Origin: a virus
Virus record (IMG/VR): IMGVR_UViG_3300032401_000690
Coordinates: 1 to 64,000 of that record
Length of the DNA: 64,000 bases
Direction: 5' to 3' (one strand)
Both the position numbers and the translations under genes were made by a program. Positions 26,207 to 63,089 of this stretch are shown in pieces (positions within the stretch are counted from its first letter, which is position 1; every line of letters starts with the position of its first letter). Under the pieces are notes generated by a model. The model did no database searches. It worked only from the letters and a program-made list of their open reading frames with translations, and was not told where the DNA came from.

Positions 26207-26210
26207 ATTG

Positions 26211-37223: not shown

Positions 37224-37522
37224 ATCCCAGTACTCCCGAATCCTTTCTCTCCTCGGTCTTTATTGTTTATGTTATCAACCTTTGTTAATTTAATCCACTT
37301 ACCTGAAACCACGGGTGAAATAACTGCTTGTGCGATTTTCTGACCTTTTTTAATTATAACATTATTTTTTGTTGTATTAAATAGTATAACTTGAATTTCT
37401 CCTGTATATCCACAATTATGTATTAGATGGTCATTACAAAAAAAGTTATGATTATTAGATACCGTAATATCATAAGTTTGGTTTTTTGATTTTGAGATTT
37501 TTTTTATTTTAGTTGTTTTCAT
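37220..37522 (-). CDS. dut: Split-intein C-fragment (36 aa) fused to dUTPase C-terminal part (64 aa)
   Basis: TYDITVSNNHNFFCNDHLIHN|CGYTGEIQV...KIAQAV...RGEKGFGSTG (dUTPase motifs 3-end, 4 and 5). Confidence 0.92.
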   Translation of the reverse strand: MKTTKIKKISKSKNQTYDITVSNNHNFFCNDHLIHNCGYTGEIQVILFNTTKNNVIIKKGQKIAQAVISPVVSGKWIKLTKVDNINNKDRGEKGFGSTGI

Positions 37523-38393: not shown

Positions 38394-38431
38394 AATACCC
38401 CTTATCTATATTGATAAATAGTATGCTGGTG

Positions 38432-39840: not shown

Positions 39841-39845
39841 ATTAT

Positions 39846-40679: not shown

Positions 40680-40707
40680 AATAATAAATATTACGACATT
40701 AATAAAG

Positions 40708-41925
40708 TTACCTAATAATACTCAAATAAAAATCTTTTCGGTCAATGGTTACTTTATTAAGGTCGTAACGATCCTTTACCGTTTCATATAGTCTTTCACC
40801 CATATCGGTAATCATATTTGGGTTATCAACCAACTTCTTAATATATTTTGCCCAATCACTATGGTTATTATTTTTATTAACCAATAACGCATTACCATCA
40901 GTAAAATTACCATTATTTAACGAATGTTTCAAATCAATCGTGTATGGTCCAACATTAGATGCAATCAATGCCTTTTTATAAAATCCTGCTTCAATAACTT
41001 TAAGTTGTGATTTCATTCTGTTAAATACGTGATCAACAATTGGTGATAAAGAAATATCAAACTTAGAATAGTTCTTAGCGTATGTTGTTGTTGGTTTTGT
41101 CCATACTCTAACATAGTTTTCATTTTGCCACCCAGGATATTCACCATCCTCAAACTTATCCAAATATTCCTTATATTTTGGTGTAACGATTTTATATTTG
41201 TCGGTAAAAATTTCTTCATACTTAACCCAAACAGTTTCTTCAGGTTTAATTGCCCGTTTTGTTTCTTGATTTGTTTGTTTGTTAATTTCGGTAACTGTAC
41301 CTCTTGTATCAAAACCACAAACATAATATTGTAGTTTATCTTTAACGGACGATAATTTTGAAACCATACCATCTAACAATTTTAAATCGTGTAAATGTGA
41401 TGATCCACCCAACCAACCAACTCTTACTTTATCAGATGGTAATGTTGGTTCATTAAATTGAGCCTCCCTTGGGTCAATAGCGTTTGGAAACACAAAAACA
41501 TTTTTATTAAATTTTTTAATTTCAAATGCAAAAATATCAGTTGTTGTTGTAACGTAAGAAGCAACTTTAAGATTTGCAATAATTTTTTCGTGAATTTTGT
41601 TATTTAAAATCAATTGTTGAATTGGATGTTCCTTTGTTGGTAACCAATAATCGTCAATGTCTGCAACAACAATAATTCCCATAGATTTAAGTTTCTCAAT
41701 CAATGCAGGACATTTATCATAATCATTTCCAATTGTTCTATGGAAATGAACAATATGATATTGTGACCAATAATTCATATCATCCACCTTTGGTGCATAG
41801 TCAATATCAACGTGAAAATCATCAGGATATAGATTTTGTAGTTTAACATGGGGGTCGACAGATCTATACCGACCAACTCCTGACGAATCTGAGGGGGCGA
41901 CTAATACTCTAATTTTTTCTTTCAT
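40708..41925 (-). CDS. GT-B glycosyltransferase (GT4-like)
   Basis: GVGRYR, DIDDYW, PNAID, GWLGGSSH, FNRMKSQLKVIEAG, ASNVGPY. Confidence 0.85.
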   Translation of the reverse strand: MKEKIRVLVAPSDSSGVGRYRSVDPHVKLQNLYPDDFHVDIDYAPKVDDMNYWSQYHIVHFHRTIGNDYDKCPALIEKLKSMGIIVVADIDDYWLPTKEHPIQQLILNNKIHEKIIANLKVASYVTTTTDIFAFEIKKFNKNVFVFPNAIDPREAQFNEPTLPSDKVRVGWLGGSSHLHDLKLLDGMVSKLSSVKDKLQYYVCGFDTRGTVTEINKQTNQETKRAIKPEETVWVKYEEIFTDKYKIVTPKYKEYLDKFEDGEYPGWQNENYVRVWTKPTTTYAKNYSKFDISLSPIVDHVFNRMKSQLKVIEAGFYKKALIASNVGPYTIDLKHSLNNGNFTDGNALLVNKNNNHSDWAKYIKKLVDNPNMITDMGERLYETVKDRYDLNKVTIDRKDFYLSIIR

Positions 41926-47864: not shown

Positions 47865-47900
47865 CTAAAAATGTAAATATTTATAAAAAAAAACAAAATT

Positions 47901-50414
47901 ATGTCAGACGCTAGAATAACCGATTTACCATTAATATTATCAGGAGATATTAGATCTAATAACGTCCTACCAATTGTTGATATTGATAATGATATCACAG
48001 ATAAAATCACATTAGACCAACTTAGAACTTATGTTAATAGTGGTGAAACATTTTTATATGAAGTGGGTTCAGGAACTTGCTCAACTCAAAGAGTTGGTGT
48101 TAGTGGATCCGCAATTGGTGATTATTCTATAGTTGCCGGGGGATTAAATAACACATCAAGTGCGCCTTATTCAACCGTAAGTGGTGGTTATTATAATACA
48201 AGTTCGTCTGACTACGGATCAATCGGAGGTGGGGCAAACAATACAATATCAACATATTCTCGTTATGCTACAATTGGTGGTGGTGACGATAACACAATAC
48301 TTCCAAATAGTGAGGTAGGAACAATATCAGGTGGTGAAAATAATACACTTAGCGGTTGTTACTCATTTATTGGTGGGGGGTATAATAACAACATATTTGG
48401 CAATTATTCAACCGTAAGTGGGGGTTATAGAAACACATCAAGTGGAAATAATTCAACCGTAAGTGGGGGTTATAATAACACATCAAGTGGTTATAACTCA
48501 ACAATAAGTGGAGGTTATAATAACACATCAAGTGGTAATTATTCAACCGTAAGTGGTGGATATTATAACACATCAAGTTCTTACCAATCAACGGTAGGTG
48601 GAGGTTATAGAAACACAATTAATCAATTCTCAACTTGTTCTGGAAAATATATTATTGCCGGTAATACAGTTGGTGGTGGAAATAATAACTTAATTAATTC
48701 AAATAGTGCATATTATGGAGATGCTGGTGGTGTAACAATTAATGGTGGTTACCTTAATAGAACAAACTCAGGTTATTACGGATTTAACACAATAGGTGGT
48801 GGTGTAGGTAATGATGCAAACCTTGAATACTCAACAGTAGGTGGGGGAACGTTTAACTCATCAACACAATCATTTACAACAGTAGGTGGTGGAGCGTTTA
48901 ACACTAACTCATCATATGTTTCTACAATTAGTGGTGGTTATTGTAATACAATCGGAACTTTATCTTCTTATTATGGTCCTATTATAGGTCAAACTATTGG
49001 TGGTGGTTCTTGTAATACAATTTCATCATATAGTGGGCAATATTGTAATGGTGGGTCAACAATAAGTGGTGGATATAGAAACACAACAGTTTCTTCTTAT
49101 TATGGTGGACAAACAATTGCCGGGGGATGGTGTAATGTAACGTCAAGTAATTATTCAACCGTAAGTGGTGGTCGTCTTAACACATCAAGTGGTCGTTATT
49201 CAACGGTAAGTGGTGGTGGTGGAAACACATCAAGTGGTTATAATTCAACAGTAAGTGGTGGTTATAGAAACACATCTAGTGGTCGTTATTCAACCGTTGG
49301 TGGTGGTAGAAATAATTTGGTGGAAAACACACTTGATACAATTGGTGGTGGTTGTTGTAATACAACAATGTTAAGTGGTGGTTTTGTCGGAGCATCAACA
49401 GTATCTGGTGGTTATAGAAACACATCAGGAAATTATTATACATTTAATGGTGGTGGTATTAATAATATTACACTTGGAGAATATTCATCAATAGTTGGTG
49501 GACAAAATAACGTAAACTATGGTGGATATGTTACCTCCATTAGTTTTAATTCTGGTAGTTTATCTGGTATCACAGATAACACATATACCGTTAACCCAAC
49601 TAATTTAGGTGGTTATGGGTTAAACTTACAAATTAGTTTTGATGTTAATAGTGGTGTTTTAAGTAACATAATAATTTTAAATTCAGGTGTTAAATATGAA
49701 AATGGACAACAAGTTTTAGTTTCTGGTAACACTATTGGTGGTTCTTCACCAGAAAATGATTTAACTTTTAATATAGACGTTGCTGTTTATTCAGATTACT
49801 CAACCATTGGTGGTGGTCAAAATAACACATCAATTGGAAATTATACAACTATTGGTGGGGGTTCATTTAATATTGTTAATGGTAATGGGGCTACTGTTGG
49901 TGGTGGTGGTGGATCTTGTTCATTGTTTGGTAATAAGGCTTTGGGGGATTATTCAACTGTGGGTGGAGGTCGTAGTAACACATCAAGTGGGGATACCTCA
50001 ACCATAGGTGGAGGTCGTAGTAACACATCAATTGGGGATTATTCAACCGTAAGTGGAGGGATTTTTAACACATCAAGTTGTGATCTTTCAACGGTAAGTG
50101 GTGGATATAGAAACACATCAAGTGGGTTTAGTTCAACCGTAAGTGGTGGTTTAAATAACACATCAAGTGGTCGTTATTCAACGGTAAGTGGTGGTCGTCT
50201 TAACACATCAATTGGTTTATACTCAAGTGTTTTAGGTGGTTCTGGAAATACAGTTTCAAATGACTGTTCATTTATTGTTGGAGATAGTATTATATCCAAT
50301 AGAATTTGTTCAACATTTGTTAATAATTTATCAATTATGAATATACCAACAAGTTCCGCTGGATTACCAACAGGTTCAGTTTGGAGTAATCTTGGGATAT
50401 TAAATATTGTTTAA
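47901..50414 (+). CDS. Tail fibre/adhesin with 14-aa Gly/Ser/Thr repeats (beta-roll/beta-helix)
   Basis: Many STVSGGYxNTSSGxY repeats; N-terminal MSDARITDLP; C-terminal LPTGSVW..G.LNIV. Confidence 0.75.
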   Translation: MSDARITDLPLILSGDIRSNNVLPIVDIDNDITDKITLDQLRTYVNSGETFLYEVGSGTCSTQRVGVSGSAIGDYSIVAGGLNNTSSAPYSTVSGGYYNTSSSDYGSIGGGANNTISTYSRYATIGGGDDNTILPNSEVGTISGGENNTLSGCYSFIGGGYNNNIFGNYSTVSGGYRNTSSGNNSTVSGGYNNTSSGYNSTISGGYNNTSSGNYSTVSGGYYNTSSSYQSTVGGGYRNTINQFSTCSGKYIIAGNTVGGGNNNLINSNSAYYGDAGGVTINGGYLNRTNSGYYGFNTIGGGVGNDANLEYSTVGGGTFNSSTQSFTTVGGGAFNTNSSYVSTISGGYCNTIGTLSSYYGPIIGQTIGGGSCNTISSYSGQYCNGGSTISGGYRNTTVSSYYGGQTIAGGWCNVTSSNYSTVSGGRLNTSSGRYSTVSGGGGNTSSGYNSTVSGGYRNTSSGRYSTVGGGRNNLVENTLDTIGGGCCNTTMLSGGFVGASTVSGGYRNTSGNYYTFNGGGINNITLGEYSSIVGGQNNVNYGGYVTSISFNSGSLSGITDNTYTVNPTNLGGYGLNLQISFDVNSGVLSNIIILNSGVKYENGQQVLVSGNTIGGSSPENDLTFNIDVAVYSDYSTIGGGQNNTSIGNYTTIGGGSFNIVNGNGATVGGGGGSCSLFGNKALGDYSTVGGGRSNTSSGDTSTIGGGRSNTSIGDYSTVSGGIFNTSSCDLSTVSGGYRNTSSGFSSTVSGGLNNTSSGRYSTVSGGRLNTSIGLYSSVLGGSGNTVSNDCSFIVGDSIISNRICSTFVNNLSIMNIPTSSAGLPTGSVWSNLGILNIV
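48120..50260 (+). repeat. 42-bp coding repeats (tcaaccgtaagtggtggt...aacacatcaagtgg) in three clusters
   Basis: Near-identical units around 48400-48620, 49140-49310 and 49950-50230. Confidence 0.8.
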
Positions 50415-50426
50415 TATATTTTTAAT

Positions 50427-50888
50427 GTGAAAAGAATTGTTAAATACGACGGTAATGATGAATTACGTAAAAAAATAATTGAGTTTTGGGTTAGTGAGAA
50501 TGCAATTAACTTAGAAGAATCTGAACGTAGAGTTGATAATGTTATTTTTGTTGATTTTTATAATGATGAGATTATTGGGTTATGTTCTGGAATCCAAATG
50601 AATGTCCCTGAGTTATCCGGTAATTTTTTATATTACCGAACATACACTTCACCCAAATGGAGGAATCTGAAAATAGCACAAGGATTATTTAATGAGACGT
50701 ATAATTTATTAAACAATTCTGAAACAAATTTATCGGGAATATATGTGGTATTTGAAAGTCCGATCTTGAATGAGTTTAATAAAGAATATGTTCTTAAGGG
50801 TTATTCTAACTTAACATTAATTAAAATTAACGAACAAGGTCAACAAGTTAGGGTATCATATTTTGATAATAAAACCATAACACAATAG
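50427..50888 (+). CDS. GNAT-like protein
   Basis: EIIGLC; YTSPKWRNLKIAQGL resembles acetyl-CoA-binding motif A. Confidence 0.5.
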   Translation: MKRIVKYDGNDELRKKIIEFWVSENAINLEESERRVDNVIFVDFYNDEIIGLCSGIQMNVPELSGNFLYYRTYTSPKWRNLKIAQGLFNETYNLLNNSETNLSGIYVVFESPILNEFNKEYVLKGYSNLTLIKINEQGQQVRVSYFDNKTITQ

Positions 50889-50928
50889 GTTCAATTCACT
50901 TTAACAAATATCTTAATATATTTCAAAT

Positions 50929-51675
50929 ATGTTTGTAACTGTTTGTAATAAAGAATATCTTATTGGGTTTGAGGTGATGTTAAAATCATTAATTGATAAT
51001 AACCCAAGGGTTGTGAATGAAAATATACCAATCACAATTATAAGTAATGATATTAGTGAGGACGATTTGTTTGTTAGTAAACAAATTCATAACAACATCA
51101 CCCTTAAAAATTTCAATCAAACAAAATATTATGAAATTGATGGATTAAAGAAACAACAAAACTTTTTCGGAGATTATTTTAAATATGAAATTTTTTCTAT
51201 TGATGGTGTTGATAAGATAATATATTTGGATTCCGATGTTGTTATTTTGGGAAACATAGATTACTTAATTGATTATGATGGAGATTTTGGTGGAGTTAGA
51301 GATTTATATATTGACCAATACAATACCGGGGTTTTACTAATTGGCAAAAAATACTTGAACACAAATATCACAAATGATCTTATCAGTCAGACATTAATTT
51401 ATGGAATTACAGAACATTCGGATCAAGATATTATAAATAAATATTTTTATGACGTAATAACCGAAATCCCAATTTCTTATAATTATTTAAAGACATATTC
51501 AAAATCTTTATTCCAAAACACCGGATTACCAAACCATATTAAGATTTTACATTTTATTGTTAAAAAACCTTGGCAAAATAAACCATTAGTTTTATTGGAA
51601 GAAGGAACATTATGGCAAGAAAGATATTGGTTTGAATACCACTCAAAGATATTAAAATTAAAATATAATGGTTAA
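50929..51675 (+). CDS. Glycosyltransferase family 8
   Basis: IIYLDSD, YNTGVLL, DQDIIN, YN, ILHF...KPW. Confidence 0.9.
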   Translation: MFVTVCNKEYLIGFEVMLKSLIDNNPRVVNENIPITIISNDISEDDLFVSKQIHNNITLKNFNQTKYYEIDGLKKQQNFFGDYFKYEIFSIDGVDKIIYLDSDVVILGNIDYLIDYDGDFGGVRDLYIDQYNTGVLLIGKKYLNTNITNDLISQTLIYGITEHSDQDIINKYFYDVITEIPISYNYLKTYSKSLFQNTGLPNHIKILHFIVKKPWQNKPLVLLEEGTLWQERYWFEYHSKILKLKYNG

Positions 51676-52579
51676 ACGACATTATGATGAAAGTGAGTTG
51701 TTGGATTATGTTGAGTTGGAACCAAAGACGGAAACATTAGTTGATAAAACAATCTTACTTCATTTTGATTCTTTTTGTTTGGGCGATACAATTTGTTTTG
51801 CTTCATTAATAGAACCATTTATTGATTTCCACAAACCAAAAAAAGTTTTAATCTCAACATTTTTTCCCCATCTTTTAAAATCAACCAACTTAAGTTATGA
51901 ATTTATTAATGCAAATCAAAAGAAAAAGATTGTTGTAGATAAACTTATTAATGTTGGGTATGATAAGGGTAGTTTATCTCATACATTAGGTGGAATGTTT
52001 TATGCGGCAAAGGAAAAGTTAATGATACCCCAAAACACAAAACCCGTTAAACCACCGATGATATTAAAATTTAGGAACCCAAAACCTAATAAAATAACAA
52101 TTGCACCTGAATCATTAAAAGATATTGCCAAATGGACGAAGGATGGTTGGCAATCGGTTGTTAATAAATTGGTTGATCATAAGTATGATGTTTATAATGT
52201 ATCATATGAGAATACGATGAACTTACAAAATGTAACACCAATTCACGGAAATGATGATATTAATATTTCAATAGACCATATTTTGGATTCAAAATTTTTT
52301 ATTGGTTTATCTTCTGGTCTTGCTTGGGTTGCATGGGCATATGGTGTTCCCGTTGTTATGATCTCAGGTTTTACAAAAGACCATAACGAGTTTGATTGTT
52401 TTAGGGTTAGAAACCACAATGTTTGTAATGGTTGTTTTAACGTTGTTCAAAATATAAAAACAAAATGTCCGATATTTTTGGGAACAAACCGGGAAAATGA
52501 ATGTCATAAGACAATAACATCTGATATGGTTATAGATCAAATTAATAATGCAATCAAGTTTACAAACAACGAAAAATAA
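51668..52579 (+). CDS. Autotransporter O-heptosyltransferase-like protein (TibC/Aah, GT9-related)
   Basis: LGDTI; FFIGLSSGLAWVAWAYGVPVVMISGFT...EF; four-Cys VCNGCFN...CP...ECHKTI. Confidence 0.8.
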   Translation: MVKRHYDESELLDYVELEPKTETLVDKTILLHFDSFCLGDTICFASLIEPFIDFHKPKKVLISTFFPHLLKSTNLSYEFINANQKKKIVVDKLINVGYDKGSLSHTLGGMFYAAKEKLMIPQNTKPVKPPMILKFRNPKPNKITIAPESLKDIAKWTKDGWQSVVNKLVDHKYDVYNVSYENTMNLQNVTPIHGNDDINISIDHILDSKFFIGLSSGLAWVAWAYGVPVVMISGFTKDHNEFDCFRVRNHNVCNGCFNVVQNIKTKCPIFLGTNRENECHKTITSDMVIDQINNAIKFTNNEK

Positions 52580-52593
52580 CTATAATTTTTTAT

Positions 52594-53481
52594 ATGGAAA
52601 AAAAATATTCATTATTTCATATTGAGGGTGGTTTAGGTAAACACGTTTGTGCAACGGCAGTTGCTAAATGTATTAAAAATAATCACCCCGATAGAGAATT
52701 GATTGTTGTATGTGCATATCCTGAAATATTTTTAAATCTACCATTTGTTGATAGAGTTTATCGGATTGGTATTACCCCTTATTTTTATGAAGATTATGTT
52801 GAGGGTAAGGATACTTTAATTTTTAAACACGAACCTTATTTCACGGACGAACATATACACAAAACATTACCACTTATTGAGAGTTGGTCAAAATTGTTTA
52901 ATTTAAACTACCAAGGAGAAACACCTGAACTTGTTTTTAATGTAAGACAAAAACAGATTGGATACAATAAATGGAAGAGGGAGAGACCAATTATGGTTAT
53001 CCAAACCAATGGTGGTCCGTTAAATGAACAACCATACCCTTATTCTTGGACTAGAGACATCCCTTATGAAGTTGCCGAACAACTTGTTAAAACTTTTGAG
53101 AATGATTACCACATCATCCAAATTTGTAGAGACAAGTCAAATGGAATACCAGGAACTGAAGTAATAACAGAACAAATGTCCAATATGGAATTGTTTTGGT
53201 TGCTAGCAATGTCAGATAAAAGAATTTTAATTGACTCTTGTTTGCAACACGCATCAATGGCAATGGGATTACCATCAACGGTATTGTGGGTTGGAACATC
53301 ACCAAAAACATTTGGATATAACATCCATAAAAACATCATTGCAAATATTCCTAAAACCGTTAAGTCACCAGATAGTTATCTTTTTGATTTTAATTTTAAT
53401 GGACTGACTCACGAATGTCCGTTATTAGATTTTAACATATTTGATATTAATGAAATAATTTACGAAACAAAAACAACTTAA
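52594..53481 (+). CDS. GT9-like glycosyltransferase
   Basis: GGLGK, PFVDRVY, IDSCLQHASMAMGLPSTVLW. Confidence 0.75.
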   Translation: MEKKYSLFHIEGGLGKHVCATAVAKCIKNNHPDRELIVVCAYPEIFLNLPFVDRVYRIGITPYFYEDYVEGKDTLIFKHEPYFTDEHIHKTLPLIESWSKLFNLNYQGETPELVFNVRQKQIGYNKWKRERPIMVIQTNGGPLNEQPYPYSWTRDIPYEVAEQLVKTFENDYHIIQICRDKSNGIPGTEVITEQMSNMELFWLLAMSDKRILIDSCLQHASMAMGLPSTVLWVGTSPKTFGYNIHKNIIANIPKTVKSPDSYLFDFNFNGLTHECPLLDFNIFDINEIIYETKTT

Positions 53482-53482
53482 T

Positions 53483-54301
53483 ATGGTACAAAAGATATTC
53501 TTTCAAAGTTCCCTACCAAGAGCGGGATCAACATTACTACAAAATGTTATGGGACAAAATCCTGACTTCTATGTAACCCCAACATCGGGTGTTTTAGAGT
53601 TGGTATATGCGGCAAGAAACAATTATACAAATTCACCTGAATTTAAAGCTCAAGACACAGATCTAATGAAAGACGGGTTCCTTTCTTTTTGTAAGAATGG
53701 GATGGAAGGGTTTTTTAATGGTGTAACAGATAAACCTTATGTTATAGATAAAAGTAGAGGTTGGGGAGTTCATTATGGATTTTTAAATTCATTTTATCCA
53801 AACCCTAAGATCATTTGTATGATTAGAGATTTAAGAGGAGTTTTTGCTTCTATGGAAAAAAACTTCAGAAAAAATCAACATATGGATTCAGGTTTGGTAA
53901 ATCATGCAACTATGGTTGGTACCACAACAGAAAAAAGAATTGATACTTGGGCTCAAAGTCAACCCGTTGGTATGGCAATTGAGAGATTACAACAAATGTT
54001 TAAAGAGGGTGTTGATAAAAAAGTGTTGTTTGTTAAGTTTGAAGATTTCACTTCCAACCCGGCAAGTGAGATGAGAAGAATATATGAATATTTGGAACTT
54101 CCTTATTTTGAACACGACTTTAATAATGTTGAACAGATGACCAAAGAAGATGATAGTGTTTATGGTATCTATGGTGATCACAAGATAAAAAACAAAATAG
54201 AACCATTAAGAAATGATTTTAACGATGTTTTGGGTATTAATGCTAGTAACTGGATTAAAACAAACTATAAATGGTATTACGATCAATTTTTATATTTTTA
54301 A
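53483..54301 (+). CDS. Sulfotransferase
   Basis: SLPRAGSTLL (5'-PSB loop), DKSR, MIRD...FAS (3'-PB), VKFEDF..NP. Confidence 0.9.
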   Translation: MVQKIFFQSSLPRAGSTLLQNVMGQNPDFYVTPTSGVLELVYAARNNYTNSPEFKAQDTDLMKDGFLSFCKNGMEGFFNGVTDKPYVIDKSRGWGVHYGFLNSFYPNPKIICMIRDLRGVFASMEKNFRKNQHMDSGLVNHATMVGTTTEKRIDTWAQSQPVGMAIERLQQMFKEGVDKKVLFVKFEDFTSNPASEMRRIYEYLELPYFEHDFNNVEQMTKEDDSVYGIYGDHKIKNKIEPLRNDFNDVLGINASNWIKTNYKWYYDQFLYF

Positions 54302-54304
54302 TTT

Positions 54305-54745
54305 ATGATTTATTGGTTTACAGGACAACCGTCCCATGGAAAAACAGTTTTGGGTGAAATGATGAAAAATCATCTTGAGAAAACACAAGAACAACCATAT
54401 AGAATTGATGGTGATGATCTTAGAGATTTATTTACAAATAAAGATTATTCTATGAAAGGTAGGGTAACAAATGTGGATGCCGCTCAAAAGATTGCACATT
54501 ATTTACATAACCAAGGATATACTGTAATCGTAACTTTGGTTTCACCTTATTTAGATCAACGAGAAGAGTTTAAACAAATGCTCGGTGAAGATATTAAGGA
54601 AATTTACATTCATTGTAATGAACCAAGAGAGAGAGATAGTTTTGCGGTTGAAGGTTATCAACCACCACAAAAAAATTTTATTGATATTGATACAACAAAC
54701 GACACACCTGAAGAATCATTAAAACTAATATTAAAAAATATATGA
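54305..54745 (+). CDS. cysC: Adenylyl-sulfate (APS) kinase
   Basis: WFTGQPSHGKT P-loop, IDGDDLR, DYS..GR..N, LVSPY, YQPP. Confidence 0.85.
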   Translation: MIYWFTGQPSHGKTVLGEMMKNHLEKTQEQPYRIDGDDLRDLFTNKDYSMKGRVTNVDAAQKIAHYLHNQGYTVIVTLVSPYLDQREEFKQMLGEDIKEIYIHCNEPRERDSFAVEGYQPPQKNFIDIDTTNDTPEESLKLILKNI

Positions 54746-55206
54746 ATTGGGAAGTAAAAAATCACGGTGGGGAACCAACAAATAATTCGGATAAAAAATA
54801 TGCGATTTTTATTGGGAGATATCAACCACCACATTTTGGGCATTTAAATCTTATAGACCAAAAATTAAATGAAGGTATTCCGGCACTTATAATGGTTAGA
54901 GATATTGCTCCTGACGATAAAAATCCTTTTACCACAGAACAAACTGTTTCTATGTTAGAGAAATATTATCATTCAAAGAATAAAGATGTTAAGGTTATGG
55001 TTATTCCTGATATTGAGTCCGTTAATTATGGTAGAGGTGTTGGTTATGAAATAAATGAATTTACACCACCAGACAATATCGGGTTTATTTCAGCAACAAA
55101 GGTGAGAGAATCAATAAAAAATGGTGATGATGGGTGGAGATCAATGATTGATGAGTCCATTCAAGACGATGTTATTAATTATTTATCATATGAAATCACA
55201 AAGTAA
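54742..55206 (+). CDS. HxGH-superfamily nucleotidyltransferase
   Basis: FIGRYQPPHFGH, NPF, ISATKVRE. Confidence 0.8.
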   Translation: MNWEVKNHGGEPTNNSDKKYAIFIGRYQPPHFGHLNLIDQKLNEGIPALIMVRDIAPDDKNPFTTEQTVSMLEKYYHSKNKDVKVMVIPDIESVNYGRGVGYEINEFTPPDNIGFISATKVRESIKNGDDGWRSMIDESIQDDVINYLSYEITK

Positions 55207-55630
55207 AACTTATCAAATAAGATTCAATACCGTATCAATAGGTGAAAACGATAGATGGAGATTAATTGAGAACGGAAATGAGACATTAGTTTCTGACGTT
55301 TATATTGATGGTCGCACTTACACAACAAAAGATTGGATAGAAGATATTCAAGATTATAAATGGCACATCAGTTGTATTGGTCATTGTAAAGTTAGAAGTA
55401 ATTGTGCCTACATTACAACAATAAAAGAAGAGTCAGTATTATTAAGACATATTTTAAAAACAATTAGTTATAGATTGTTAGGGACATTAACTACTGTTAT
55501 TGTTGCTTTAAGTTTGGGGGTAACCACAGAAGTATCCACATTATTAGGTGTTGGTGAATTGTTAATTAAACCTGTAATTTATTTCTTCCACGAAAGACTA
55601 TGGTATAAGTTTATTAAGATTAAAAAATGA
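55190..55630 (+). CDS. Protein with C-terminal DUF2061-like membrane domain
   Basis: RHILKTISYRLLGT...K..IYFFHERLW; ATG at 55190 preferred. Confidence 0.7.
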   Translation: MKSQSKTYQIRFNTVSIGENDRWRLIENGNETLVSDVYIDGRTYTTKDWIEDIQDYKWHISCIGHCKVRSNCAYITTIKEESVLLRHILKTISYRLLGTLTTVIVALSLGVTTEVSTLLGVGELLIKPVIYFFHERLWYKFIKIKK

Positions 55631-55659
55631 TTTGAGGTTGTATTTATAGTCTAAGAACT

Positions 55660-56439
55660 ATGGATCAAACAATAACAATTCAAAGTATAAATTATTCTGG
55701 TGAAAGTGCTGAAATAATTTTTAATCCTGACAATGAAACTATTGTCATTAATCTGGGTGCACATATATTACCTTACGCTTTTGATTCATCATTATTGGAT
55801 CCACCAAGAGAAATTTACGGCACTTATACGATATTAGTTAATAATTGTCCATACTTCCTTAACGTTCCAAGGTTAACACCAACACCTACACCGACGAGAA
55901 CTCCAACGAGAACTCCGACACCAACAGTTACACCAACACCAACGGTAACACCAACATATGATCCGTGTTCGGTAACACAAACACCATCGGTTACTCCGAC
56001 GAAAACACCAACAAGAACTCCAACGAGAACTCCGACTCCAACACCAACAATAACGTGTTATGCGACACCTACACCAACACCAACGGTGACACCATCATCG
56101 TTACCGTCATTACCTGGTGTTTATTACGGTAAATTTAATAGTACGTTAATAACTTCTGCAGATACGTCATCATTAACATTTGTAACAACAAATGATATAA
56201 CAAATACGTATGTGACGTTCTCTGCGGGGACTGGTTTTGGATATGTATTAATACCACCATCTTTACCTCAACCTATTAACTTTAAAGATAGTGATACTGG
56301 ATGTACGGGTAATGATGTCCCTGTTAATAACATAGGTACTGTGGTTGTATTGGATACAAATGGATTTGCAATAACATATAACATATATAGAACATTCTTC
56401 CCATTCAATGGACAATTATTCTGTTGGTTGTGTGGTTAA
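55660..56439 (+). CDS. Pro/Thr-repeat putative virion protein
   Basis: About 70 aa of PTPTRTPT repeats between two beta domains; upstream TATTTATA. Confidence 0.7.
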   Translation: MDQTITIQSINYSGESAEIIFNPDNETIVINLGAHILPYAFDSSLLDPPREIYGTYTILVNNCPYFLNVPRLTPTPTPTRTPTRTPTPTVTPTPTVTPTYDPCSVTQTPSVTPTKTPTRTPTRTPTPTPTITCYATPTPTPTVTPSSLPSLPGVYYGKFNSTLITSADTSSLTFVTTNDITNTYVTFSAGTGFGYVLIPPSLPQPINFKDSDTGCTGNDVPVNNIGTVVVLDTNGFAITYNIYRTFFPFNGQLFCWLCG

Positions 56440-56455
56440 AAACAAATAAATAATT

Positions 56456-59400
56456 ATGATGAGTTTTAGTCTTTCAGGGGGAGTTGAAGTTTTCGGGTTT
56501 ATATCACCATCGGAACCAACTGATACATATCCCGTTATAGATCCAATATATGGTATTGACGGTTTAAGAAACGTGGATACCCTTTCAGATTTAGACAATA
56601 TTCCTGAACTACGAAGACGTGCAGGTATGGTTGTGGGGGTTAGTGGTGGAACTGAATATTATAAACTAAATCCTCCTCCGTGGAATCTTGATTTTACCGA
56701 TTGGTCTGTTTTTAATTCTGGTGGTAGTGGTTTATCTTCATACACATATAATAACAATACTTTCACAATTTTAGATCTTACAGGTGGAACATATAGTGCA
56801 ACAATTAATGAAGTGACTGGATTAACCGTTAATGGAATTTTATCGGCAATGACATATGAAAACTTACCTATTGATGTTTTTGTTACGGGGGGAACTTATT
56901 CTGCGGGAACAAGTACTTTTGTTAATAACACCGGAGGAACATTTGATGTCACGGGATTCTATACAGGTGACACCGATGATAACACATATATCACAGGTTT
57001 TACATATTCGGCAAACACATTTACTATATCCGACAATTCAGGAACTACATTTAATTCAACTATTAATGAAGTAACAGGACTAACAGTTAATGGTATATTA
57101 TCGGCAACAACATATGAGAATTTACCTACCGATGTTTATGTGACTGGAGGGACTTATAATAACGGAACAAGTACCTTCACAAATAATACCGGAGGTACAT
57201 TTAATGTTAATGGGTTCTATACGGGAGCAACAGATGTTTTTGTTACGGGAGGAACATATAATAATGGGACAAGTACTTTTACGAATAATACCGGAGGAAC
57301 ATTTGATGTTACTGGGTTCTATACTGGAGAAACTGATGATAATCAATATGTTACAGGTTTTACATATTCCGCAAATACATTTACAATATCAGACAATTCA
57401 GGTAATACGTTTAATTCAACAATAAATGACGTTACAGGGTTAACCGTTAACGGAATATTATCTGCAACCACAATAAGTGGTGGGACATTCTACGGTAATG
57501 GTCTTGAACTAACAAGGGTTGAGAATTTAGTAACCGTTGGTTTAAATGGTACTAATTGTGACTTTGGGTCAATTAACTCTGCAGTTGATTATTTAATATC
57601 TTCGGGTAATACTTCATCAACAAATAGATATGTTATTACCGTTGGGCCTGGTGTATTTTATGAAAATGAAATTGATTTAACAAATATACCATATGTTAGT
57701 ATTGTCGGTAGTAGTGTCCAAACAACACAAATCCTACCAAACACCAATACCCAACATATTGTTAAAATAGGGGCTAATAATGAAATATCGTTTTTAACTT
57801 TTAGTGGGGCACCTTTAGGGTATTCGGCAATTTATTGTTACGATATTGGAGATTATGCTCAAGCTCATAAAATTTCATTTTACGATTGTGATATAAATGT
57901 GTGGGTTGAATCTAATAGTCAGGACACAAAATTCTATGGTGAATATTTAGATTATAATGGTACATATACTTATGGAACAAAAGTTATAGGAAACAATGGT
58001 TATGAGGCGTTAGCCAATATGGAGAACTATTATAACTTCCCAACGGGAGGAAATATAACTTATTGTAATTATGCGACAGGTAGTGGGGCAACATTAAGTG
58101 TTTTTGTTGGTGATAATCAAAGTAATGGAGTTTCAGGTAGTACTGCATACTTTGCTCAAGATGGTGCTGGATTATATTGTAGTACAATTACGATAAATGG
58201 TTTCACATATGGTATTAGAAATCCAAATGTGGGAGATCCGATTAGATTTGATATTGATAATGCTAGTATTGTAGGTGGAGAATGGGATTTATATATTGAA
58301 CGTATTACCACCTTTGGTACATTTGGAGGTAGTGCCAATAGCCAAAAAACATATTCGGTTAGTCCTGACATATATTGGGCATTTTTAGATATTGAGGATG
58401 GTCAGTTTGATATAACAAGAAAGGCTTCTGTAACATTTACCGATGGATCACATACCGACTTTACTACTTTAATTTTTGATGGGGGACCCATGGGTCTTTT
58501 AAGTGGTGGTACACTTACAACCGTTAGTGGAACAACAATCCAAACCGATAGGGGTTTCGGGTATGTTGAGAAATCAGATAATAGTGGGATTGTTAGAAGA
58601 ATTAATTGGGACAATAGTGAAATAACTCTATCTGAAAATACTAACACCTATATCTTTATTAACGAAAATGGTAATTTAGGGGGTTCAGGAACTAGACCAA
58701 ACTCTTTTTATAACATAATTTTAGGTAGGGTTGTTACTAATTCTACCGAGGTATCATTTATTGATTTAACACCATTTAATGCCGAACACACATCAAATAG
58801 GTTTGGTAGTTTGTTTAGAGAAGCCTTAGGACCAATATATTCATTAGGGTCAATAGTAACAGAAGGAACACCAACATACACCTTGGATGTAACTGATGGG
58901 GAGTATTATTTCTCAACCACAGAAATTTTACCTTCAGGTGGAACAGGAATAACATTTAACCAATATTATAGAAACGGTTCTGGTGGTTGGATAACAAGTG
59001 GAACAACAACCGTAGTTAACGGTTATGACGATAATAGTGGTACAATATCACCACTACCTTTATCTGCATATACAAAACATACATTATATTTAGTTGGTGA
59101 TGGAATTTACGAGAACTATTTTTTAGTATTAGGTCAAAACCAATATTCAACTTTAATTGAGGCTGAATTAGGTCTTTTACCAACACCACCAACATATTTT
59201 ACAGATTCTGTAGTTCAGGTTGCAAACATTTATATACGACAAGGATCATCAGGAATAACCCAAATTGAGGACATTAGACCTATTATTGGTTTTAAATCTG
59301 GTGGTGTAAACGCATCCTCAGTTCACGGTAATCTTTTAGGATTATCTGCCGATGACCATATCCAATACTTGTTGGTTAATGGTGGTAGACCTATGAGTGG

Positions 59401-60457
59401 GAACCTTGATATGGGAACTAACAACATTACGAATGTTGGGACTGTTGATGGTGTTACGGTATCCGCACACGCAACAAGACATCAGTTTGGTGGTTTAGAC
59501 CCTGTTGGTTCAACAACTCCAGGACCTAATTACATTCCATATGCTGACGTTAGTGGAACATTAAATGATTGGGTATCAACCGCATCAACCACAACATTTG
59601 GTAAAGTAATAACATCAAGTTCAAGTACTACAGTTGTTAGTGATAATGACCCAAGATTTTTAAATTCATTTACGGGTGGAACATATTCGGGAGGGACGTT
59701 ATCTTTAAATAATAATAGTGGGGGGACTTATAATATATTAGGATTTTATACGGGAGCAACTGATGTATTTGTTACGGGGGGAACTTATAATAATGGGACA
59801 AGTACATTTACAAATAACACCGGAGGAACATTTAATGTGTCGGGGTTTTTGTCTAATGCAACAACGGCAGTTACATTATCATCTAATGTGTTAAGTGTAA
59901 CTTCAAGTGGTGGAACACCAACAACAACTACGATTAATGCGGCAACGGGAGGAACATATTCAAACGGTACAATAACACTTGATGGTACAGGAACGTTATC
60001 AACAATAACTGGGTTATATACAGGAAGTACTGATGTTTTCGTAACTGGAGGAACTTACTCTAATGGAACAAGTATTTTTACAAATAATACCGGAGGTACA
60101 TTTAATGTCACAGGGTTCTTATCTACAGACACATACGTGACAGGTGTTACATATTCGGCAAATACTTTAACGGTACAACAAAATCAAGGTCAATCAAACA
60201 TAACAACAACGATTGGTTTAAATATAAAATCTAACACAATTACTGCGGGAAGTTTCGCAGGTAACCCCAAGAAAAATACCGTCACATTTACAACCGCGTA
60301 CCCTACCGATAATTATACTATTGGTATTACAGGTTCTGATAATAGAACTTTTACTTACGAATCAAAAACCGTTAATGGGTTTACAATAAACACAAATGCA
60401 AATACCGTACTAACAGGAAATGTGGATTGGCAAACTACCCAAATAGGTGAATCATAA
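56456..60457 (+). CDS. Large tail fibre/tailspike-like protein with internal Thr/Gly repeats
   Basis: 1333 aa; repeated DVFVTGGTY..GTSTFTNNTGGTF and TIN.VTGLTVNGILSA; beta-helix start SINSAVDY...ITVGPGVFYE; H-type-lectin-like C-terminus. Confidence 0.75.
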   Translation: MMSFSLSGGVEVFGFISPSEPTDTYPVIDPIYGIDGLRNVDTLSDLDNIPELRRRAGMVVGVSGGTEYYKLNPPPWNLDFTDWSVFNSGGSGLSSYTYNNNTFTILDLTGGTYSATINEVTGLTVNGILSAMTYENLPIDVFVTGGTYSAGTSTFVNNTGGTFDVTGFYTGDTDDNTYITGFTYSANTFTISDNSGTTFNSTINEVTGLTVNGILSATTYENLPTDVYVTGGTYNNGTSTFTNNTGGTFNVNGFYTGATDVFVTGGTYNNGTSTFTNNTGGTFDVTGFYTGETDDNQYVTGFTYSANTFTISDNSGNTFNSTINDVTGLTVNGILSATTISGGTFYGNGLELTRVENLVTVGLNGTNCDFGSINSAVDYLISSGNTSSTNRYVITVGPGVFYENEIDLTNIPYVSIVGSSVQTTQILPNTNTQHIVKIGANNEISFLTFSGAPLGYSAIYCYDIGDYAQAHKISFYDCDINVWVESNSQDTKFYGEYLDYNGTYTYGTKVIGNNGYEALANMENYYNFPTGGNITYCNYATGSGATLSVFVGDNQSNGVSGSTAYFAQDGAGLYCSTITINGFTYGIRNPNVGDPIRFDIDNASIVGGEWDLYIERITTFGTFGGSANSQKTYSVSPDIYWAFLDIEDGQFDITRKASVTFTDGSHTDFTTLIFDGGPMGLLSGGTLTTVSGTTIQTDRGFGYVEKSDNSGIVRRINWDNSEITLSENTNTYIFINENGNLGGSGTRPNSFYNIILGRVVTNSTEVSFIDLTPFNAEHTSNRFGSLFREALGPIYSLGSIVTEGTPTYTLDVTDGEYYFSTTEILPSGGTGITFNQYYRNGSGGWITSGTTTVVNGYDDNSGTISPLPLSAYTKHTLYLVGDGIYENYFLVLGQNQYSTLIEAELGLLPTPPTYFTDSVVQVANIYIRQGSSGITQIEDIRPIIGFKSGGVNASSVHGNLLGLSADDHIQYLLVNGGRPMSGNLDMGTNNITNVGTVDGVTVSAHATRHQFGGLDPVGSTTPGPNYIPYADVSGTLNDWVSTASTTTFGKVITSSSSTTVVSDNDPRFLNSFTGGTYSGGTLSLNNNSGGTYNILGFYTGATDVFVTGGTYNNGTSTFTNNTGGTFNVSGFLSNATTAVTLSSNVLSVTSSGGTPTTTTINAATGGTYSNGTITLDGTGTLSTITGLYTGSTDVFVTGGTYSNGTSIFTNNTGGTFNVTGFLSTDTYVTGVTYSANTLTVQQNQGQSNITTTIGLNIKSNTITAGSFAGNPKKNTVTFTTAYPTDNYTIGITGSDNRTFTYESKTVNGFTINTNANTVLTGNVDWQTTQIGES

Positions 60458-60469
60458 TAATTATATATA

Positions 60470-60928
60470 ATGGGAAATTTTATAACAGATAATATAATAT
60501 CCGAAGGTAGTATATCAGGAGTTACCATAAGTGGTAATACATTTTACGGTAATGGATCAGGACTTACAAATGTTTCTGCAACATTTTCTAAATCGTGGGA
60601 TGCTGGTGGAGGATTTATTACAACAGGTAATACACGATATTTAATATCTAATACTACTTGTACAATCAATCGATGGAGTATAATTGCAACAGGAACAAAT
60701 CCCACCTGTACGATTGATATATGGAAGGTAGGTACAGGAACATCTTTACCTACAGTATCTAACACTATAATGGGAACTAAACCTATACTATCAACAGGAA
60801 ATGCGGTTCGTTCAACTATTACAACTGGTTGGACTACATTATCAATTACTGAAGGAGATATCATTGCATTTAATATTGATAGTGTAAGTAACACATTAAC
60901 ATTAACATTCACATTAGAAGTTGCTTAA
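60470..60928 (+). CDS. Putative fibre-associated protein
   Basis: 152 aa; shares ISG.TFYGNG..LT motif with the upstream fibre. Confidence 0.6.
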   Translation: MGNFITDNIISEGSISGVTISGNTFYGNGSGLTNVSATFSKSWDAGGGFITTGNTRYLISNTTCTINRWSIIATGTNPTCTIDIWKVGTGTSLPTVSNTIMGTKPILSTGNAVRSTITTGWTTLSITEGDIIAFNIDSVSNTLTLTFTLEVA

Positions 60929-60959
60929 ATATAAAAAAATAAATTAAAAATAATCAATT

Positions 60960-63089
60960 ATGCCTATAATAACAGTATCAAATACAGGAGGAAATTGGAA
61001 CGCAGGAACAACTTGGGTTGGTGGGGTAGTTCCTAGTGCTACATTAGATACTGTGGCATTTACATCTACATCGGGACAATTAACAGTTAACGTTCCATCA
61101 ACTTGTATTGGGATAAGATTTACCAACTATGTAAATACAATTACATTTACAACTACACTTACTATAAATGGTCCAATAAATCTAGGTACGGGTGGATATA
61201 CACAAGCAGGTGCAAGTGGATTAATAGCAGGTGCAACATCAACATTAACATCGGGAGGAGTAACTTGGTCTAGATTATTTACATTTGCGGGTGCATCCCA
61301 AACTTTTACATTAGCAGATAACTGGACGATAAGTGGGAATATAACAATAAATGGTACAACATCAGTTATTATAAATGGTAATACTTTAAATATTGGTGGT
61401 AACTTAACCCAAACCACAACTGCAATTGTTTCAGGAACAACGGCATTCAACTTTAACGGTACAGGCACTTGGAGTAATTCAAGTACTGGATCAATTAGAA
61501 ATAATACCACAATAAACACTACAGGTACTTTAACTATAGGAACCAATGTTTATTACGATACAGGTACATTAACTAGAACATCTGGAACTGTAATAACCAC
61601 AGGTTCAACATTAAATATTGGAGCCGCAACAACATTAACTACTAATGGTATTACTTGGAATAATATTAATACAACCACAGGAGTAGTTATAACATTAGGA
61701 AGTAACTTAACTTTAACAGGAACATTAAGTTTAGGAAATGGTGTAACAAGTTTTACTTTAGGTGGATTTAATTTAATAAGTACAAATGCTAATTTAACTA
61801 TGTTGGGAGTAAATGCAATTTTTACAATGCCAGCAAATCAAACGTTTAAATCATTAACTATAACAGGTACAAATGCAACTCTGAATGCAAATACTTTAAC
61901 TATAACAGGAAATCTCACAATTAATGCTGGTGTATCTGGAACAACTACAATAGTTTATGGTGGTACTGGTACTTGGACTGCTTTAAATACTACTTCTTTA
62001 ATAAGTAATATTCTAACTATTAACACACCAGGAACACTTACTATTTCGGGAATAGTTTATAAACAATTAGGACTTTTTACTTATACGACTGGAACAATTA
62101 TAGACACAACGGGTACTGTATCTGTGCAATCAATAACTTTAAACTTATCAGGATTTACATTCAGAAAATTACTTGTAAATAATACAATTACTTTAACGAG
62201 TAATATCAACGCAACTACTTTTGGTACTTGGGGTGCTAATGTAATAACCTTTACATTAGGTGCTTTTTCACTTAATTTTACAAATCTTGAATTGGGTAAT
62301 ACAGGTATAACCACATTACCAACCGCTTGGGTATGCCAAAATATAGAATTTGCAAATGGTGGAACTGGTACATTAAATACTAATTCTATTACTATTAACG
62401 GTAATATTTTACAATCATCTATTGGTATTTATGGAGGAACTACAACTTTTACATATGCAGGAACTGGTAGTTGGACATCAACGAGTACAGGATATTTTAG
62501 TAATACGTTTAATATCAACACTGCCGGTACATTAACTTTTATAAGTGGTAATATTGGAGGTGGGACATTTACTTACACATCAGGTACCGTTGTAACTACG
62601 AGTTCAACTTTGACTATTAACGTATCAACAACATTAAATACTAATGGTATTACTTGGAATAATGTAACTTTATCTAATACAGCAATATATACATATACAA
62701 TAAATTCTCCATTTGTTGGGACAGGGACTTTAACCATAGGAACAAGTACATCAACAATATTTGCAGGTACTGCAGGATTTACTTTTGGGATATTAACTAA
62801 TGCATCAACCGTGGCAACATCAGTAACACTTGTTAATGGATTAACATACACCATAACATCATCATTAAATTGTTTTACAACTCGTAATGGGTCTTCATTA
62901 TTATTTACATCTAATCACGCTACATTAACATCTAATTTAATATTTTCTGGGGGTGCTACTTGTAATGTCTTAGCAAATTTTACACGAATAAATGCAAGTG
63001 GTGGAAGACCTATAATGACTTTTAATGGAACATTAGTAGGTTGTTCTAATATTATTGAAAGACACGATTTTGTAACATATGGATATTAA
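60960..63089 (+). CDS. Thr/Gly/Asn-rich beta-helix putative virion protein
   Basis: 709 aa with very few charged residues; GGNWN..TWVGGVVP...D.V.F start; repeated GTGTW...INT.GTLT units. Confidence 0.7.
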   Translation: MPIITVSNTGGNWNAGTTWVGGVVPSATLDTVAFTSTSGQLTVNVPSTCIGIRFTNYVNTITFTTTLTINGPINLGTGGYTQAGASGLIAGATSTLTSGGVTWSRLFTFAGASQTFTLADNWTISGNITINGTTSVIINGNTLNIGGNLTQTTTAIVSGTTAFNFNGTGTWSNSSTGSIRNNTTINTTGTLTIGTNVYYDTGTLTRTSGTVITTGSTLNIGAATTLTTNGITWNNINTTTGVVITLGSNLTLTGTLSLGNGVTSFTLGGFNLISTNANLTMLGVNAIFTMPANQTFKSLTITGTNATLNANTLTITGNLTINAGVSGTTTIVYGGTGTWTALNTTSLISNILTINTPGTLTISGIVYKQLGLFTYTTGTIIDTTGTVSVQSITLNLSGFTFRKLLVNNTITLTSNINATTFGTWGANVITFTLGAFSLNFTNLELGNTGITTLPTAWVCQNIEFANGGTGTLNTNSITINGNILQSSIGIYGGTTTFTYAGTGSWTSTSTGYFSNTFNINTAGTLTFISGNIGGGTFTYTSGTVVTTSSTLTINVSTTLNTNGITWNNVTLSNTAIYTYTINSPFVGTGTLTIGTSTSTIFAGTAGFTFGILTNASTVATSVTLVNGLTYTITSSLNCFTTRNGSSLLFTSNHATLTSNLIFSGGATCNVLANFTRINASGGRPIMTFNGTLVGCSNIIERHDFVTYGY

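Follow-up and report, generated by a model that had tools for sequence, protein, structure and literature searches.

A candidate ATP sulfurylase of nucleotidyltransferase descent in a putative fibre-sulfation module of a large uncultured phage

A large uncultured T4-like phage was found to carry a compact module of four genes, encoding a PAPS-type sulfotransferase, an APS kinase, a 154-aa HxGH nucleotidyltransferase (NT) and a DUF2061 protein, within the 64,000-nucleotide stretch of its DNA analysed here as a whole (the window). Judged by its genomic context, NT is probably an ATP sulfurylase of an undescribed class, and the locus as a whole is best explained, with reasonable though not high confidence, as a fibre-modification unit in which NT makes APS for the kinase and the sulfotransferase. 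In textbook biochemistry, sulfate is activated by one of two known types of enzyme, Sat or CysDN. A wider proposal, to which we give an even chance, has three parts: that an NMNAT-derived NT of about 130 residues constitutes a third and independent ATP sulfurylase class replacing Sat or CysDN in jumbo phages, DPANN archaea and some bacteria; that DUF2061 serves sulfate activation generally, as a membrane component; and that phage-made PAPS sulfates fibres or fibre glycans, a virion modification new for phages. Nothing relevant was found in the literature on phage cysC with a sulfotransferase or on a nucleotidyltransferase-type ATP sulfurylase. If true, a third and so small (about 130 residues) type of ATP sulfurylase would alter the annotation of sulfur metabolism in streamlined microbes and viruses that seemingly lack sulfate activation, and would offer a very small enzyme for enzymatic PAPS production.

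The virus gave no DNA match to known phages, and its portal protein shared at most 39% identity with that of any cultured phage. The idea of a described pelagimyophage feature was dropped; the pelagimyophage literature examined was silent on the module genes. The features of the locus are as follows.

47878-47885, + strand: copy of the promoter-like motif TATTTATA, located 16 nt ahead of the fibre gene (47901)
47901-50414, + strand: repeat-rich fibre or adhesin-like protein of 837 aa with a UspA1 match; candidate acceptor of modifications
50427-50888, + strand: weak GNAT-like acetyltransferase (PF00583 at 0.0031, below cut-off)
50929-51675, + strand: GT8 glycosyltransferase (PF01501 at 5.9e-21)
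51668-52579, + strand: relative of TibC/Aah-like protein O-heptosyltransferases (TIGR04414, 2.8e-33; PF01075, 5.6e-4)
52594-53481, + strand: conserved 295-aa protein, probably a GT9-like glycosyltransferase, which travels with the sulfotransferase
53483-54301, + strand: PAPS-type sulfotransferase, 272 aa (PF13469, 2.1e-22; PF00685, 2.9e-13)
54305-54745, + strand: short-form APS kinase, 146 aa (PF01583 at 2.5e-18)
54742-55206, + strand: HxGH nucleotidyltransferase (NT), 154 aa; candidate ATP sulfurylase (PF01467, 2.9e-7)
55190-55630, + strand: DUF2061 protein, 146 aa (PF09834 at 3.5e-12); the ORF extends from 55148
55641-55648, + strand: next + strand copy of TATTTATA, 12 nt ahead of a gene that begins at 55660; the unit probably ends here

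A preliminary description of this DNA had reported the four module genes as tightly coupled, and all four ORFs were confirmed. From the 295-aa gene through the DUF2061 gene they are spaced by a 1-nt gap, a 3-nt gap, a 4-nt overlap and a 17-nt overlap. The arrangement is not due to chance, since dozens of independent viral contigs contain this set of genes together. Upstream lie the UspA1-like fibre gene and then three glycosyltransferase-like genes. The motif TATTTATA sits 12-18 nt upstream of the start codons of seven genes (four on the + strand, three on the - strand) and is a putative promoter. Since its next + strand copy occurs only at 55641, a single transcription unit may extend from the fibre gene to the DUF2061 gene.

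The sulfotransferase, the sole one in the 144-kb record, fell clearly within the PAPS-dependent families, scoring 80.9 bits against Sulfotransfer_3 (cut-off 27) and 50.3 bits against Sulfotransfer_1 (cut-off 22). Its only solved relatives were structures of protein-tyrosine sulfotransferase 1 (TPST1), at 2e-6, and the acceptor could therefore also be a protein tyrosine. The kinase passed the PF01583 test with 67 bits (cut-off 21.1), and all 21 of its PDB matches were APS kinases, the best being 2gks (8.6e-11). Its sequence shows the P-loop GQPSHGKT, DGDDLR and VSP as well as a shortened lid, and under NCBIfam it remained below the cut-off (70.9 vs 127).

NT passed the PF01467 (CTP_transf_like) test with 31.2 bits against a gathering cut-off of 21. 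Both catalytic motifs, HxGH and ISxT, are intact, as PHFGH at residues 30-34 (within GRYQPPHFGH) and ISATKVR at residues 116-122, and the invariants of the family are GR26, H31, H34, R53, R98 and S117/R122. The AlphaFold2 model of NT (pLDDT 93.9) was nearest to archaeal NMNAT (TM 0.64-0.68), with a Foldseek probability of 1.00 to both NMNAT and PPAT; by sequence as well as by fold, its nearest kin are NMN and phosphopantetheine adenylyltransferases and not Sat. The closest of all were the archaeal/NadM NMNATs (PDB 1ej2, 1f9a; TIGR01527, NF002243; E = 1.5e-5), with which NT has GRxQPxHxGH and ISxTxxR in common. On these alignments and the model, NT derives from an archaeal-type NMN adenylyltransferase and is no relative of Sat or CysD.

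Such kinship, together with the fact that phages with NadM-type enzymes are known, might suggest that NT simply adenylylates NMN for NAD salvage by the phage and stands here by chance, the first counter-reading named in the preliminary description. We consider this extremely improbable. NT scored far under the family cut-offs for archaeal/NadM NMNAT (47.3 vs 127 bits for NF002243, 38.2 vs 181 for TIGR01527), it has a deletion of about 28 residues relative to NMNAT between query positions 110 and 115, and its GRGVG aligns with a differing NMNAT sequence. GRGVG and VRD are family-specific invariants of NT, and so are Arg53 and Arg98, positions at which archaeal NMNAT has no Arg. No NAD-salvage partner (NadV or Nudix) was found in the record, more than 100 relatives of NT are fused to APS kinase, and what accompanies NT in genomes is not NAD genes but APS kinase, sulfotransferases and CysQ.

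A second counter-reading has NT making an activated sugar or polyol for the neighbouring glycosyltransferases, either ADP-heptose for the TibC-like transferase or CDP-glycerol. PF01467 does include such enzymes, and a heptosyltransferase relative lies three genes upstream of NT. Nevertheless, neither the RfaE/HldE adenylyltransferase domain nor glycerol-3-phosphate cytidylyltransferase was among the 15 NCBIfam families that matched NT at E <= 0.01, a heptose-pathway partner was not apparent among the annotated neighbours, and the constant partner of NT in viruses, archaea and bacteria is APS kinase and not a heptosyltransferase. An ADP-heptose or CDP-glycerol enzyme is thus very unlikely.

The preliminary description had also proposed NT as a minimal ATP sulfurylase completing the path from sulfate via APS to PAPS. 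As a candidate function this survived every refuting test run, but a Sat origin did not hold. PF01467 was the sole Pfam family matched by NT, with no match to PF01747 (Sat), and a PF01747 search of the whole record gave nothing. When the NT family was compared with four Sat sequences by hhalign, the probability was 16.7% and only the ISxTxxR region was covered. The Sat motifs QxRNPxHxxH and GRDHAG and the N-terminal PUA-like domain are absent from NT, which has GRYQPPHFGH and GRGVGY, whereas Sat sequences from the same archaeal sample carry QTRNPxHRAH and GRDHAG. As NT descends from archaeal-type NMNAT, its place within the superfamily would be that of an analogue and not of a "minimal Sat".

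Sat-type enzymes share the HxGH motif, and the human one requires it (PMC11697783). PAPS synthases and Sat-CysC pairs (human PAPSS1/2; Aquifex aeolicus, PDB 2gks) likewise combine an HxGH-type adenylyltransferase with a P-loop APS kinase, the two parts often being fused in either order, and it is to the kinase domain of 2gks that the kinase of the window aligns best. They differ in that the NT core has about 130 residues without the PUA-like domain, QxRNP, GRDHAG or significant similarity to the Sat profile, and in that NT and the kinase of the window are separate, overlapping genes.

The gene-neighbourhood check called for in the preliminary description linked NT strongly to APS kinase, sulfotransferases, CysQ and sulfate-related membrane proteins. 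Among 120 long relatives of NT, the order APS kinase-NT was found in 103, NT-APS kinase in 7 and Sulfotransfer_2-NT in 1. Of 34 related viral loci, 31 have the triad of APS kinase, NT and DUF2061, with the kinase adjoining or fused to NT and DUF2061 downstream, and 17 yielded a sulfotransferase; further viral loci contain Sulfotransfer_2 or an APS kinase-HAD fusion, and in one phage NT-APS kinase is followed by a TauE anion permease. Between the window and a related locus (L002), identity is about 79% for NT and 70% for the DUF2061 protein, but only 23% for the kinase, whose counterpart there is a canonical APS kinase partnering the same NT, and 32% for the sulfotransferase, which points to partner swapping. 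Neither Sat nor PAPS_reduct domains were found in the record of the window or in two related phage genomes of 304 and 385 kb (completeness 95% or higher), and the CysD-type test gave no PF01507 match in the phage's own record or in five related phage records.

In cellular genomes, NT is anticorrelated with Sat and CysD. Of 46 Nanoarchaeota genomes that encode APS kinase, 4 of 13 NT carriers versus 27 of 33 non-carriers have Sat or CysD (Fisher p = 0.0017, a value that overstates independence because the sampled genomes are related and may be incomplete). The other nine carriers have neither Sat nor CysD and yet keep APS kinase, CysQ and sulfotransferases; one genome (G001) has at least four sulfotransferases and no Sat or CysD. 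The gene order in bacteria is CysQ-(DUF2061)-CysC-CysD-CysN, and in Nanoarchaeota it is CysQ-[NT fused to an APS-kinase domain]-CysC. The CysDN operons of Bacteroidota and other bacteria have the same accessory set of CysQ, DUF2061 and CysC, with NT in the position of CysDN. The catalytic parts differ: CysD, which the CysN GTPase drives, is an ATP pyrophosphatase of the PP-loop type, whereas the fold of NT is unrelated and no GTPase partner accompanies it. The NT family was not found in a sample of 251 Bacteroidota genomes.

In the Nanoarchaeota fusions, DGDN of the kinase domain is changed to DSKI, and a true kinase then follows. Fungal ATP sulfurylase (Penicillium chrysogenum) has a C-terminal regulatory APS-kinase-like domain. 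These fusions, with their APS-kinase domain lacking DGDN next to a true APS kinase, resemble it, although the catalytic family differs, the genes of the window are unfused and its kinase keeps DGD.

CysD and CysN also occur in 4 of the 13 carriers, in the same locus as NT in one genome (G225) and about 5 kb away in another (G290), so NT is not strictly alternative to CysDN. In the genome where CysDN adjoins NT, the GRGVG motif of NT reads GHDVG. This coexistence, as well as the absence of Sat-like sulfate motifs from NT, would suit another role in PAPS metabolism, such as a different APS/PAPS-linked adenylyl transfer or regulation, with APS coming from the Sat or CysDN of the host and the phage adding only the kinase and the sulfotransferase. 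Direct reduction of APS, without CysC, is common among bacteria, and in these a phage would therefore need the kinase only; a host making APS would render a phage sulfurylase unnecessary. Still, we regard such a role as unlikely. To our knowledge, no alternative reaction requires an HxGH adenylyltransferase beside APS kinase, the nine carriers without Sat and CysD retain the remaining sulfation genes, and the layout of a fused pseudo-kinase plus a true kinase suits a sulfurylase.

With NT as an ATP sulfurylase, the locus would work as a late, co-transcribed fibre-modification unit that begins with the 837-aa fibre gene and ends with the DUF2061 gene. NT, with sulfate as its putative second substrate, would adenylylate sulfate (ATP + sulfate -> APS + PPi), the short APS kinase would phosphorylate APS to PAPS, and the sulfotransferase would use PAPS to sulfate either the fibre or a product that the neighbouring glycosyltransferases make. 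Gene position and the shared promoter-like motif suggest a virion component as the acceptor. If true, phage cysC could be taken to belong to a pathway for sulfating virions or surfaces and not to sulfur assimilation.

The placement of the module in a fibre region was also put forward in the preliminary description. It does follow glycosyltransferases, with the UspA1-like ORF upstream, and residues 631-786 of the 837-aa protein matched the trimeric adhesin UspA1 (PDB 3pr7) at 2.4e-18, besides a weak beta-roll match. The large ORFs flanking the module, including this one, had no phage-family (PHROG) match. On account of the UspA1 match, a "fibre region" is plausible, though inferred.

The target could be a different one, for the module might sulfate a host envelope component (e.g. 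against superinfection) or divert host sulfur metabolism instead of decorating the virion. The usual reading of phage cysC is that of a metabolic gene, and the predicted membrane hairpin of the DUF2061 protein means that the pathway may act at the host membrane. We hold such a target to be possible but rather doubtful. The module is set between fibre-like genes and glycosyltransferases, both here and in those relatives in which it lies beside Laminin_G_3 giant proteins, and one promoter-like motif is apparently common to the module and the fibre gene. Moreover, the PAPS consumer is a sulfotransferase, and neither PAPS reductase nor sulfite reductase was found in the record.

As regards the glycosyltransferases that might supply the sulfated product, the 51668-52579 protein scored 115 bits against TIGR04414, under the equivalog cut-off of 200. 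The 295-aa protein is 36% identical to the product of a sulfotransferase-adjacent gene in L002, and its family is present in 14 of the 34 viral loci. Glyco_transf_9 matches were weak and found in 5 of 12 members of this family (best 0.0013), sequence and profile searches of the 295-aa protein against the PDB found none, and its BLASTP comparison with the TibC-like neighbour was not significant.

The DUF2061 protein matched PF09834 with 47 bits (cut-off 23.1) over profile positions 1-51 of 52. Judged against 145-aa relatives with 70% identity, the ATG at 55190 is likelier than 55148 to be the real start. Its AlphaFold2 model shows an all-beta N-terminal domain (strands 6-76) and a helical hairpin (80-108, 113-141), predicted to be a membrane hairpin; the model is confident, and the fold had no PDB match at E <= 0.001. 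Literature mentions of DUF2061 were incidental, mostly in metal-regulon papers. We infer that the protein is a membrane partner of sulfate activation; as a component generally accompanying that process, it may serve in sulfate supply or tethering, which, if true, would be the first functional context for DUF2061. In Bacteroidota, DUF2061 adjoins CysD, CysC or CysQ at 17 of 25 loci, and a word-based search for long DUF2061 protein fusions gave a single one.

The sequence derives from an uncultured T4-like phage (gp20 portal, 1902-3737; gp23 capsid protein, 7716-9584) with a G+C content of about 31%; no cultured phage has a portal more than 39% identical to its own. The IMG/VR record is 144 kb long, with a completeness estimate of 49%. 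The four ORFs previously described as a self-contained sulfation module are real and gave the domain matches listed below. They lie in a closely packed run of + strand genes (45642-63089).

47901-50414, +, upstream of the module: fibre-like protein of 837 aa, part of which resembles the trimeric adhesin UspA1 (2.4e-18); termed the fibre gene
51668-52579, +, upstream of the module: relative of TibC/Aah-like O-heptosyltransferases (TIGR04414, 2.8e-33)
53483-54301, +: sulfotransferase (PF13469, 2.1e-22)
54305-54745, +: APS kinase, 146 aa (PF01583, 2.5e-18)
54742-55206, +: HxGH nucleotidyltransferase, 154 aa, termed NT (PF01467, 2.9e-7)
55190-55630, +: DUF2061 protein (PF09834, 3.5e-12)

For the DUF2061 gene, the most likely start is the ATG at 55190, which gives a 17-nt overlap with the 3' end of the NT gene and a predicted product that matches 145-aa relatives (70% identical). 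A weak GNAT, a GT8 and a conserved protein of 295 aa that gives weak GT9 signals are also found 5' of the module.

The gene-neighbourhood analysis proposed in the preliminary description linked NT firmly to sulfate activation genes. In 34 IMG/VR loci, APS kinase adjoined or was fused to NT in 31, DUF2061 lay downstream in 31, and a sulfotransferase of the window type and the 295-aa protein were nearby in 17 and 14, respectively. Some other loci contained a family-2 sulfotransferase or an APS kinase-HAD hydrolase fusion amid GT2 and GT10 genes. Metagenomes yielded 4370 NT relatives of like length, mostly 75-96% identical. A further 120 relatives were longer proteins, including 103 APS kinase-NT fusions, 7 NT-APS kinase fusions and one family-2 sulfotransferase-NT protein. 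In a different phage with an intein-containing NrdD (L008:8001-9802), the slot of DUF2061, downstream of an NT-APS kinase fusion, is taken by an anion permease of the TauE/SafE family. Between the window and the related locus L002, identity was about 79% for NT and 70% for DUF2061, and only 23% for the kinase and 32% for the sulfotransferase. Thus, NT and DUF2061 form the conserved core, while kinase and transferase are exchanged. Neither Sat nor a PAPS_reduct/CysD domain was detected in the window's own record, in three further related records or in the genomes of two phage relatives (304 and 385 kb) with a completeness of 95% or more.

Several other occurrences were observed. Cultured siphophages KF626665 (Xylella phage Sano), KF626668 (Salvo) and LR743524 (Bacata), as well as Stenotrophomonas/Xanthomonas relatives, carry a 'kinase' (phrog_10255) that resembles NT in its C-terminal part (31-36% identity). 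The annotation of one record calls this protein adenylylsulfate kinase, and a DNA methyltransferase is its neighbour in one record. The NT relative P0236 (278 aa) joins an endonuclease VII domain to NT, which might reflect insertion of a mobile nuclease next to the NT gene or an artefact of gene calling. The module also occurs on metagenomic contigs L001 (658 kb) and L003 (411 kb), which are either phage genomes of very large size or assembled concatemers.

The top family and structure matches of NT were archaeal and NadM-type NMN adenylyltransferases (NMNATs), with scores far below the cut-offs of those families. Its AlphaFold2 model was confident (pLDDT 93.9), and Foldseek ranked archaeal NMNAT first (TM 0.64-0.68) and phosphopantetheine adenylyltransferases next, with no ATP sulfurylase among the best 48 matches. 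Profile comparison with four Sat sequences reached a probability of 16.7%, over the common ISxTxxR region only. As neither search revealed Sat likeness beyond ISxTxxR, a reduced Sat was ruled out. Compared with Methanobacterium NMNAT, about 28 residues are missing between NT positions 110 and 115, and NT carries a family-specific GRGVG where the NMNAT segment aligns. Across 49 diverse members, G25, R26, H31, H34, R53, P62, P89, D90, G97, R98, G101, S117 and R122 are near-invariant.

The NT family also occurs in cells. It was called at E < 1e-30 in 13 of 401 sampled Nanoarchaeota genomes, fused to or beside APS kinase in 11 of them; in G364 and G389 the kinase is on a separate contig. Fusions of NT and APS kinase were also present in Woesearchaeota and Nanoarchaeia MAGs, one Saccharibacteria MAG and one T9SS-bearing bacterium. 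At least five carriers have a CysQ-like phosphatase followed by NT fused to an APS-kinase domain, with a separate APS kinase next in three of these loci and likewise in MAG L076 (this cluster type: L007:8001-9505; also L030, L032, L033, L076 and L077). In this type, the fused domain has DSKI instead of DGDN and is probably a pseudo-kinase judging from its sequence, while the downstream kinase is canonical; the layout resembles that of a sulfurylase bearing a regulatory pseudo-kinase and accompanied by a true kinase. The genome G001 encodes CysQ, two APS-kinase domains and four or more sulfotransferases; neither Sat nor CysD was found in it.

Sat and CysD in 46 APS-kinase-positive Nanoarchaeota genomes (unpublished G360 left out)
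NT carriers (n = 13): Sat 0; CysD 4; Sat or CysD 4
Non-carriers (n = 33): Sat 17; CysD 12; Sat or CysD 27

Sat or CysD was thus present in 4/13 carriers versus 27/33 non-carriers (Fisher exact p = 0.0017, for related genomes whose completeness is not given). No conclusion draws on G244 or G360, both flagged as unpublished. The genuine CysD and CysN in four NT carriers are the main counter-evidence to the sulfurylase reading. In G225 (L028:6896-10038), true CysD and CysN divergently adjoin the NT-APS kinase gene, and in G290 they lie about 5 kb from NT. The otherwise invariant GRGVG reads GHDVG in G225 and SRKVG in G290, which is compatible, in these two genomes only, with an NT that is decaying or altered where CysDN is present.

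A minimal ATP sulfurylase, as proposed in the preliminary description, is the best-supported explanation of NT on its gene context, and we consider it somewhat favoured overall. The kinship with Sat did not stand: such an enzyme would be an NMNAT-derived analogue. No paper describing the NT enzyme was found in the literature searched.

DUF2061 was present in 22 of 251 Bacteroidota genomes, none of which encodes the NT family. CysD, APS kinase or CysQ lay within 1.5 kb in 17 of 25 distinct Bacteroidota DUF2061 loci, the usual order being CysQ-DUF2061-CysC-CysD. One DUF2061-APS kinase fusion occurred in this sample and another in a Spirochaetota MAG; the latter and an Auribacterota cluster display the same association with sulfate activation. 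Hence, DUF2061 belongs to sulfate activation generally, with any sulfurylase, and NT sits in the phage module in the slot that CysDN occupies in the bacterial clusters. Bacterial DUF2061 genes (L087, L096, L101, L110, L085, L079) often have a tandem double domain, and short forms without the N-domain exist. The window protein was confidently modelled as an all-beta N-domain plus a hairpin of two helices, and the basic residues predicted at the helix ends are invariant; the model had no PDB match. Its role might, as a guess, be sulfate supply or membrane tethering.

The window APS kinase aligned only with APS kinases among solved structures. It retains the P-loop, the DGDxxR motif and the VSP segment; in the human enzyme, mutations of the DGD aspartates abolish APS kinase activity (PMC11697783). 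The enzyme is of a short form whose lid is reduced, and it scores below NCBIfam cut-offs; the same form occurs in many related phages as a separate gene or fused. In some related phages (L044:7031-7996 and L058:7037-7996), APS kinase and a HAD-family hydrolase domain make up a single protein, with NT directly downstream; the HAD domain could be a PAP phosphatase or pyrophosphatase.

The 144-kb record has no sulfotransferase besides that of the module. Its solved sequence relatives are protein-tyrosine sulfotransferases only (human protein-tyrosine sulfotransferase 1, 2e-6), so either a sugar or tyrosine is possible as the acceptor. Sulfation of tyrosines in the Tyr-rich fibre repeats could therefore be an alternative to the glycan sulfation previously proposed.

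The octamer TATTTATA was found 12-18 nt 5' of seven start codons, always on the coding strand (3738, 5212, 47878 and 55641, +; 15765, 19535 and 42695, -), including genes after the portal gene. Its total in the window (23) is not above the shuffled expectation of 17.9. Its placement makes it a likely phage promoter element. The copy at 47878 precedes the fibre gene and the next is at 55641; if TATTTATA is a promoter, the entire sulfation module would form one unit with the fibre gene and the glycosyltransferase-like genes. Neither PAPS reductase nor CysQ was found in the 144-kb record, and in relatives the module lies beside giant Laminin_G_3 proteins. These observations favour the virion fibre or its glycan as the sulfation target, and gene position makes a virion target plausible. 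The UspA1-like fibre gene lies two genes before the relative of TibC/Aah-like autotransporter O-heptosyltransferases, which suggests O-heptosylation of the phage fibre protein. The glycosylation genes of this phage far outnumber those in the fibre/sulfation block: a large glycan-synthesis island spans 24340-41925 on the - strand, with a GDP-mannose 4,6-dehydratase (27872-28867) and a double GT2 protein (35715-37223).
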